64,000 nucleotides of DNA from Candidatus Nomurabacteria bacterium (GTDB lineage Bacteria > Patescibacteriota > Saccharimonadia > Saccharimonadales > HK-STAS-PATE-42): contig CP060233.1 in the NCBI GenBank assembly GCA_023898665.1, positions 289,833 through 353,832 on the forward strand, given 5' to 3'. Below the pieces are notes generated by a model. That model had not been told where the DNA came from, made no database searches, and saw only the letters and a program-made list of their open reading frames with translations. Shown one piece after another: positions 52,356 to 53,289 of the stretch. A program made the position numbers and the translations under genes. Within the stretch, counting starts at the first letter, position 1; the number at the start of each line of letters is the position of its first letter.

Positions 52356-52637
52356 ATGGAAGAGAAATTAAGATATCAAGTTAGAAGGGTCATACAATTT
52401 GTAAAGATGTATGGAAGGCCTGCATTACTTGGTACAGTTTATGAACAGTGCGAAGAAGAAAGAAAGGTTTGTAATAACTGTCCACTTAGAATTGGGAATG
52501 TTGCCTGTGCAACAGAAAATTATGTAGAAGCTCCTGTTATTATTGATTCACCTGATATAAAGGATTGGTTCAAAACATCTCATGACGTGCCAACTTGTAA
52601 ACATCCTGAGAGATCGAGACCTATTGATCAAACTTAA
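52356..52637 (+). CDS. Small Cys-rich protein, paralog 1 (C-x7-C-x2-C)
   Basis: 93 aa with QCEEERKVCNNCP. TATAAT lies 13 nt upstream and there is no Shine-Dalgarno. Confidence 0.45.
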   Translation: MEEKLRYQVRRVIQFVKMYGRPALLGTVYEQCEEERKVCNNCPLRIGNVACATENYVEAPVIIDSPDIKDWFKTSHDVPTCKHPERSRPIDQT

Positions 52638-52705
52638 GCTTGCACTTAATTATCCATGGGGTGTAAATTAATCTTTAAAACTAAATTATTAATTGGGAGA
52701 CTACT

Positions 52706-52975
52706 ATGGCAAATAAATATGCAGATAAAACACCTCAGCCAGGTCGATGTGAATTAGTGGATGGGGTAAGAATACGTATAGCGGATGTTGACGTAAAGCA
52801 TCGAGCAGGGAGGGAAAGCCAGACCTTAACCGAAGCTGGTTCTACTCAAGTTGCGTGTCCGGAGGATGTTGCTAAAAGGTGTGGTGGCTGTATCGTCGAT
52901 TCTCTTCGTGCTCAAGCAATTCATCCAGAATGGACCGCAGTTGCAGTTGGTGGCTCAAGGACTCAAGCTGAATAG
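52706..52975 (+). CDS. Small Cys-rich protein, paralog 2 (C-x35-C-x7-C-x2-C)
   Basis: 89 aa with ACPEDVAKRCGGC and an upstream GGGAGA Shine-Dalgarno. Confidence 0.5.
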   Translation: MANKYADKTPQPGRCELVDGVRIRIADVDVKHRAGRESQTLTEAGSTQVACPEDVAKRCGGCIVDSLRAQAIHPEWTAVAVGGSRTQAE

Positions 52976-52998
52976 TATACAATAATTAAAGAAAGAAG

Positions 52999-53289
52999 GT
53001 GTTAATGGGAGATTTTGTACAGGATAAAGCAGGTGCAACGGGAGAGATAACCTGTACTTTTGATAGAGATGGAAATTACTTAGGTTCATCTGTGCTTTTG
53101 CCTCCAACAAGCTTATTTTTGAGGGTTTTTCGCCTTTTTGAAGAAATTCCCGTAGAGTGTCCAGAGGTTGATATCGAACGATGTGGGAGGTGTCCTGGGA
53201 TAAGAGATCGTAATATTAATACTTCTGGTGCTAGGGTCGTAACAGCTACTAGGTTTGATGATTCGGTTAGAGATATGTTACTTCCTTAA
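52999..53289 (+). CDS. Small Cys-rich protein, paralog 3 (C-x34-C-x7-C-x2-C)
   Basis: 96 aa with ECPEVDIERCGRCPG. The motif aligns with paralog 2. Its 3' end overlaps the convergent rluB-like gene. Confidence 0.5.
   Translation: MLMGDFVQDKAGATGEITCTFDRDGNYLGSSVLLPPTSLFLRVFRLFEEIPVECPEVDIERCGRCPGIRDRNINTSGARVVTATRFDDSVRDMLLP

Follow-up and report, generated by a model that had tools for sequence, protein, structure and literature searches.

In a 64,000-nucleotide (nt) stretch of contig CP060233.1 from a Candidatus Nomurabacteria bacterium, the interval between the genes der and rluB holds three small cysteine-rich open reading frames (ORFs). We refer to the whole stretch as the window, to the interval as the slot and to the small genes that it contains as the cassette, to which an earlier reading of the same DNA (hereafter the original prediction) had drawn attention. 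According to our analyses, the cassette is rather probably an operon, restricted to one lineage, whose small soluble proteins bind metal, each at one four-ligand site, and which occupies a fixed hypervariable slot. The ORFs are coding, and both their sets of candidate ligands and their promoter are conserved; the ligand sets in turn suggest metal binding. The slot itself is sharply bounded, hypervariable and discordant with its flanks. A large fraction of the genes in the tiny genomes of Patescibacteria is uncharacterised, and the cassette adds to them a new family of small proteins whose mode of evolution is unusual. The features of the locus are as follows (aa, amino acids):

50849-52234, - strand: der, left flank of the slot
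52320..52348, + strand: predicted sigma-70-type promoter, TAAACA-17 nt-TATAAT (10/12 matches in a consensus scan)
52356..52637, + strand: ORF1, type 1, 93 aa, H6799_01925, hypothetical protein at NCBI
52695..52699, + strand: putative Shine-Dalgarno site GGGAG, 6 nt before the ORF2 ATG (direct sequence reading)
52706..52975, + strand: ORF2, type 2 short, 89 aa, H6799_01930, hypothetical protein at NCBI
52995..52999, + strand: putative Shine-Dalgarno site GAAGG, 5 nt before the ATG at 53005 (direct sequence reading)
53005..53289, + strand: ORF3, type 3, 94 aa, H6799_01935, hypothetical protein at NCBI
53267..53289, both strands: 23-nt tail-to-tail overlap of ORF3 and the pseudouridine synthase gene, right edge of the hypervariable slot
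53267-53944, - strand: S4/PseudoU_synth_2 (rluB-like) gene, convergent, right flank of the slot

Coding status and promoter of the cassette genes

As the original prediction had stated, the three ORFs (93, 89 and, when counted from a GTG, 96 aa) are co-oriented on the + strand between der and the rluB-like gene, with gaps of 68 nt and 29 nt between them. The GTG in question, at 52999, yields the 96-aa version of ORF3 and overlaps the GAAGG Shine-Dalgarno site; the ATG at 53005 (94 aa), which both the JGI and the NCBI callers use, is the likelier start. We compared six genomes, namely the window and five Saccharimonadales-type relatives whose Der proteins are 79-91% identical. Four of the relatives (L008, L009, L010 and L013) were retrieved via Der and the fifth (L035) via a match to the ORF1 family, called type 1 below. 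In all five, the same slot carried 3-5 small co-oriented ORFs with the same motifs, and the core-gene synteny around the slot was likewise kept. On the basis of this synteny the ORFs were judged to be genes. The DNA of the slot had near-random identity between genomes, and the in-frame protein motifs persisted. The ratios of nonsynonymous to synonymous substitution rates (dN/dS) were ~0.16-0.48 for the cassette genes, compared with 0.04-0.17 in the flanks, dS being saturated. In addition, the guanine-cytosine (GC) content of the cassette ORFs followed a GC1>GC2>GC3 periodicity over the three codon positions with host-like GC3, and JGI and NCBI each called the cassette genes independently. The three ORFs are genuine genes: in-frame conservation in five other genomes, dN/dS below 1 and codon-position periodicity all uphold their coding status.

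The local GC content had been put at 45-50%. This applied to ORF2 alone (0.478-0.479), whereas ORF1 (0.358-0.362), ORF3 (0.405-0.411) and the whole locus (0.398) were lower, the window mean being 0.374. ORF2 ranked in the top 0.14% of 270-nt windows, and 16% of windows of locus size were at least as GC-rich as the locus. Because the excess in ORF2 is found at codon positions 1 and 2 (GC1/2/3 = 0.64/0.53/0.27) with a host-like GC3, it reflects the content of Gly, Ala, Arg and Pro rather than foreign DNA. GC3 amounted to 0.22-0.27 in the cassette genes versus 0.26-0.33 in the flanking genes, and in the four relatives checked the slot was not GC-richer than its surroundings. A GC-rich island or horizontally acquired DNA was rejected on these grounds, that is, the host-like GC3, the lack of mobility genes and the composition of the relatives' slots.

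Upstream of the cassette, the block TAAACAT...AAAGTnGTATAAT was kept in all six genomes, directly followed by coding DNA of near-random identity. The distance from the -10 box to the ORF1 ATG is 7 nt in the window, and the type 1 ATG lies 7-10 nt after the box in five of the six genomes (the window, L035, L008, L009 and L013), the leader of L010 being ~25 nt long. Given this short distance, the first gene appears to be leaderless in those five genomes. The conservation of the promoter in all six thus supports the arrangement that had been proposed, with a leaderless first gene and Shine-Dalgarno-driven ORF2 (GGGAG) and ORF3 (GAAGG). No convincing terminator was found within the cassette, and the three genes likely constitute one co-transcribed operon, in which the near-consensus promoter would produce a single transcript whose first gene is read without a leader and whose later genes are translated from their Shine-Dalgarno sites. 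At the other end, the 23-nt overlap between ORF3 and the 3' end of rluB also occurs in L035 (6347-6369) and measures 4 nt in L009, L010 and L013. Since no terminator-like site was found between ORF3 and the rluB-like gene, transcription from the strong cassette promoter would run antisense into rluB.

Candidate ligand sets and the hypervariable slot

Cysteine accounted for 4.3-5.4% of the residues of the three ORFs versus 0.58% in the 46 long ORFs of the window, a 7-9 fold enrichment that bears out the Cys richness claimed for them. Similarly, CxxC motifs occurred 3 times in the 276 aa of the cassette and 4 times in 15,929 aa elsewhere, and neither other small Cys-rich genes nor further family members were found outside the slot in the 64 kb window. 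The family proteins are 85-145 aa long and fall into three types. Type 1, to which ORF1 belongs, was the first gene after the promoter in every genome examined, and only P22, C39, C42, C81, H83 and R86 were invariant across the six genomes (alignment A13). Its signature is therefore CxxC...CxH..R, with C39, C42, C81 and H83 as putative Cys3His ligands, whose codons in ORF1 (+ strand, alignment A13) are:

52470-72: C39
52479-81: C42
52596-98: C81
52602-04: H83

The C-x7-C-x2-C core that had been attributed to ORF1 did not hold: the actual spacing is C32-x6-C39-x2-C42, and C32 is not conserved, being absent in L035. The likeness to that core is a coincidence of one non-conserved Cys, and the extra Cys residues near the type 1 CxxCP are not conserved.

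ORF2 carries the Cys tetrad C15, C51(P52), C59 and C62, and the L035 orthologue (5740-5997) shares 61% identity with it and has its Cys at matching positions. Both are short versions of type 2, consisting of the Cys domain by itself, and ORF2 aligned to the C-terminal domain of the long version (127-145 aa), which was present in L008, L013 and L035 and combines a Gly-rich N-terminal domain with the Cys domain. A third, 'ext' form, found in L009 and L010, has the N-terminal domain only and no Cys domain. For these 'ext' ORFs, at 3375-3885 (-) in L009 and 4262-4486 (-) in L010, a pseudogene, a split gene or the loss of a domain are all conceivable; a further ORF of L009, 65 aa long and free of Cys, includes an 'FDIRI' strand that resembles the type 2 hairpin. 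Type 3 was always last in the slot, in 1-3 copies, and shows the architecture ITCxFDxxG followed by C(P)-x5-7-C-x2-CP. In ORF3 the tetrad comprises C17 (within ITCxFDxxG), C52(P53), C60 and C63(P64), and in alignment A6 the invariant type 3 residues were G10, C17, G23, C52, C60, C63 and P64.

Types 2 and 3 have a common tetrad, C-x23-41-C(P)-x5-7-C-x2-C. In a pooled alignment of 12 sequences C15, C51 and C59 were invariant and P52 and C62 were conserved in at least 90%, and the Cys positions of ORF2 (15/51/59/62) and ORF3 (17/52/60/63) are near-identical. BLASTP of ORF2 against ORF3 matched 8/14 residues (E = 0.002 in a single comparison) and hhalign of type 2 against type 3 gave E = 0.008. 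The common ligand positions and the presence of adjacent duplicates in L035 and L010 are consistent with types 2 and 3 being tandem paralogues, with weak statistical support. The paralogy proposed for ORF2 and ORF3 was thus retained as far as the single Cys-tetrad architecture of the 12 sequences is concerned, whereas pairwise similarity was limited to the 8/14 residues and did not extend along the proteins. In contrast, the comparisons did not support ORF1 as their paralogue: it had no significant pairwise similarity to ORF2 or ORF3 and its ligand set is Cys3His, not Cys4. With hhalign, type 1 and type 3 shared only a stretch of ~24 columns around CxxCP (E = 0.005, probability 7%), and no link was detected between types 1 and 2.

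A four-ligand metal site, as had been suggested, is the most economical reading of these patterns, since the ligands are nearly the sole invariant residues. The type 1 site would be formed by CxxC...CxH (Cys3His), and that of types 2 and 3 by a distal Cys on an N-terminal strand together with the C-terminal C(P)-x5-7-C-x2-C(P) cluster (Cys4). The metal is probably zinc, bound as structural Zn2+. The isoelectric points of 4.7-9.6 and the lack of a hydrophobic segment or a signal-like N-terminus suggest that the cassette proteins are soluble. Constraint would be limited to the ligands and a few turn residues, and for this reason the rest of each protein would change very fast. This is reflected in the ranges of protein identity across the genomes:

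Der: 79-91%
RluB: 70-78%
Pif1: 64-85%
Type 1: 21-66%
Type 2: 26-61%
Type 3: 28-53%

The limits of the variable region were abrupt. Between L035 and L009, DNA identity was 0.37 in the slot, compared with 0.79 and 0.71 in der and rluB; along the sequence it went from ~0.8 through der to ~0.3 within ~100 nt past the conserved promoter, and returned to ~0.7 at the rluB stop. The cargo of the slot measured 1.0-1.6 kb and differed in composition: L035 has adjacent type 2 copies, one long and one short, the former being exactly what the window is missing, and L010 has three type 3 copies. The array would thus change through tandem duplication, deletion and domain loss. Seven near-identical strain contigs were 99.9-100% identical over the locus, which argues against on-going hypermutation.

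The slot and its flanks also grouped the genomes differently. By the flanks, L035 was nearest to L009 (Der 91%, Pif1 85%), whereas in the slot it was nearest to the window (type 1 66%, versus 26% to L009). L009, in turn, paired in the slot with L013 (47-53%), which is the outgroup by the flanks. Exchange of cassettes by homologous recombination in the conserved der and rluB regions would fit this discordance, as would the sorting of ancient alleles. In Saccharibacteria, both natural competence and recombination through homology arms of ~1 kb have been documented (PMC10633639), and dprA is a near neighbour of the slot; these points would make cassette exchange feasible.

Competing readings of the cassette

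Database searches placed the family apart from known proteins. Pfam searches with 20 family members at E<=1 yielded nothing but two isolated chance-level matches, NCBIfam gave no relevant match for the three window ORFs, and neither PHROGs nor PADLOC matched the cassette proteins. Profile searches of the PDB returned one chance-level match (E = 0.5), so that no curated zinc-ribbon or zinc-finger family was matched in Pfam, NCBIfam or the PDB profiles. A word-index protein search with ORF2 or ORF3 returned only the query itself, and tblastn against phages had no match. Exhaustive HMMER with ORF1 produced two matches, a true relative (P0003, 69% identical) and P0004, a 445-aa high-GC protein with repeated 'VWTSPDGxxWSRxxHDE' (Asp-box/BNR-like) units. 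Four stretches of the latter matched ORF1 residues 47-91 ('DSPDIKDWFKTSHD', the DSPDIKDW stretch) at E = 3e-4; we judged this to be a coincidence of a short beta-hairpin motif, kept only in the type 1 subtype of the window and L035, and rejected P0004 as a relative. A metagenome scan with the Der alignment contributed nothing beyond a duplicate of L010, and a literature search found nothing on such proteins in Saccharibacteria. Altogether, the synteny-anchored comparison recovered the family, whereas word-index and single-sequence searches recovered only its nearest relatives, and no homologue was found outside the clade in the protein searches.

Several points weigh against a metal-binding operon in an exchangeable slot. 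What suggests metal binding is the conservation of the ligands by itself, and the Cys patterns would also suit an iron-sulphur (Fe-S) cluster or redox-active disulfides. The library searches found no homology to any characterised zinc protein, and the AlphaFold models had predicted local distance difference test (pLDDT) scores of 36.7 (ORF1 with P0003) and 39.8 (ORF3 alone), too low to assess ligand geometry. Co-transcription and expression are read from sequence signals, and the dN/dS values are rough owing to the saturation of dS. Finally, with six genomes, the discordance could come from differential loss of ancient paralogues or from lineage-specific bursts of rate.

The competitor that survives best, which we nevertheless regard as rather unlikely, is that the Cys tetrads bind an Fe-S cluster or act as redox-active thiols, the proteins being small redox sensors or regulators similar in logic to the WhiB-like (Wbl) proteins. 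Fe-S sites, too, can have four conserved Cys of which two precede a Pro (CP...CxxCP), and ligand conservation does not discriminate between metals. The type 1 CxxCP is reminiscent of WhiB-like proteins, but the Pfam WhiB model was not matched by any of the 20 members at E<=1. The spacing is C-x23-41-C-x5-7-C-x2-C, not the C-xn-C-x2-C-x5-C of Wbl proteins, and type 1 is Cys3His with additional Cys near its CxxCP that vary between genomes. The hosts of cultivated Saccharibacteria are Actinobacteria, which are rich in Wbl proteins (PMC10633639), a circumstance in favour of the redox reading.

Distinctly unlikely, in our view, is a set of lineage-specific orphan genes that are decaying or under weak constraint and do little or nothing, with relaxed selection as the source of their hypervariability. 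Such decay would agree with a dN 3-12 times that of der, with losses and truncations (the 'ext'-only type 2 in L009 and L010, the long type 2 missing from the window) and with the restriction of the homologues found to the clade. However, the ligands are invariant in six genomes at overall identities of 21-53%, dN/dS is below 1, the promoter is strongly conserved, and differences in rate would by themselves leave the discordant grouping unexplained. Moreover, the slot was occupied in every genome examined, in a streamlined genome of ~0.7 Mb. A region that is occupied in all the relatives examined, lies behind a conserved promoter and is almost completely rewritten except at its putative metal ligands is probably not junk.

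We consider it highly improbable that the ORFs are tandem precursors of ribosomally synthesised and post-translationally modified peptides (RiPPs) with Cys-rich cores, matured by enzymes encoded elsewhere. Several tandem small Cys-rich ORFs of variable sequence in one transcription unit would suit such a role, and a precursor-like family was among the candidates of the original prediction, but no radical-SAM, lanthipeptide, YcaO, peptidase C39 or ABC-exporter gene was present within ~12 kb. This absence of a modification enzyme, leader peptidase or exporter on either side disfavours the candidate, as do the length of the proteins (85-145 aa) and the location of the conservation, at dispersed Cys/His ligands and a turn motif instead of in a conserved leader with a variable core. 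The last alternative, a non-coding locus (a structured RNA or a foreign GC-rich insertion with chance ORFs), would draw on the stabler folding of the + strand (-241.7 vs -184.5 kcal/mol for the - strand, an asymmetry that the G>C skew, between +0.2 and +0.3, accounts for), the GC-rich ORF2 and single-ORF word-index searches that returned only their queries, but it is effectively refuted by frames and motifs kept in six genomes at near-random DNA identity, and also contradicted by a GC excess confined to codon positions 1 and 2, by the lack of phage matches and by the lack of any Rfam match in the locus, at E<=1 over 51500-54500 and likewise at the gathering thresholds, the sole Rfam match of the window being a tRNA. 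A diversity-generating retroelement (DGR) target was also considered and rejected: the locus had no direct repeat longer than 16 nt, its neighbours are core genes and the strain contigs are nearly identical; the RVT_3/RNase H ORF at 60569-60985, 7 kb from the slot, is an RNase H-type protein.

We therefore retain the operon of small metal-binding proteins as the preferred reading. The original prediction was largely right in what it observed (the genes, their Cys richness and the operon signals) and partly right in its interpretation, from which the ORF1 motif and the GC island had to be withdrawn, the ORF1 paralogy found no support and the precursor candidate was disfavoured. From the evolutionary pattern alone, we infer that the proteins may serve as diversifying binding or recognition modules toward a host, a phage or a competitor. 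A more specific version is doubtful, namely that the slot is a dedicated specificity locus, a recombination-exchanged array of metal-stabilised mini-binders under a conserved strong leaderless promoter, whose fast-diversifying surfaces would mediate strain-specific interactions with the host bacterium, phages or competing epibionts. If it were true, the locus would constitute a novel class of polymorphic cassette, used by ultrasmall bacteria for recognition or conflict. The slot is a compact candidate module for strain-specific interaction or for regulation; should its role prove to be an ordinary one (zinc handling or a regulator, for instance), the family would be just another orphan.

Neighbourhood and comparison with known systems

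The neighbours of the slot encode FtsW, MurG, TopA, DprA, Pth, Der, RluB, Pif1, MsrB, HAD, RNase H and M3 peptidase proteins. Adjoining the slot is a Pif1-family helicase gene with a C-terminal HTH_40 (53968-55683, -), whose product is 85% identical between L035 and L009, far above every other pair (64-73%). Further downstream, directly after tRNA-Glu(CTC) (55788-55862), a 324-aa acidic ORF (55970-56944, +) contains a HEAGH (zincin-like) motif and had no Pfam match at E<=1e-3. On the other side, the gap between dprA and pth (49641-50198) comprises ~560 nt that are gene-free and AT-rich (GC ~0.29), with no Rfam match at the gathering threshold, and is unusually long given the compactness of the genome. 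The neighbourhood has a further variable site or indel between topA and dprA: L035 carries there a 383-aa gene without a Pfam domain (352-1503, +), where the window has a 92-nt gap (48691-48782). Among 18 public contigs with the exact ORF2 protein, 15 are shorter than 2 kb and several stop inside or beside the slot (L002-L007), which could stem from low coverage or from assemblies breaking at a site that varies between strains.

The cassette can be set beside four kinds of known system. Like tandem RiPP precursor arrays, it groups a number of small Cys-rich paralogues into a single transcription unit, but it has neither nearby maturation machinery nor a leader-plus-core pattern, and its proteins are longer. 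The Wbl Fe-S proteins are likewise small, with four Cys including CxxCP and no further cofactor motifs; they differ in the order and spacing of the Cys, in lacking the invariant His ligand of type 1 and in a Pfam WhiB model that none of the 20 members matched.

Another parallel is with small zinc-ribbon and zinc-knuckle proteins, which are similarly below 100 aa, soluble and equipped with four Cys/His ligands including a CxxC knuckle, with scant sequence conservation beyond the ligands. In the zinc-ribbon class, two zinc knuckles (of the CxxC or CPxCG type) come from two beta-hairpins. Types 2 and 3 have instead one CxxC knuckle and two single Cys, and type 1 has CxxC together with CxH. The cassette proteins, known from sequence alone, also differ in having no zinc-ribbon Pfam match.

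As a locus, the slot differs from replaceable cassettes (polymorphic recognition or immunity loci and regions of genomic plasticity) in that it has no toxin, integrase, recombinase, RT (reverse transcriptase)/DGR or mobile-element gene, its 1.0-1.6 kb cargo consists of small Cys-ligand proteins under a conserved host promoter, and no within-population variation was seen at it among the strain contigs (99.9-100% identical). It nonetheless resembles them in its sharp breakpoints at conserved flanks, in its divergent, discrete 'alleles' that are discordant with those flanks, and in a copy number that changes through tandem duplication and loss.

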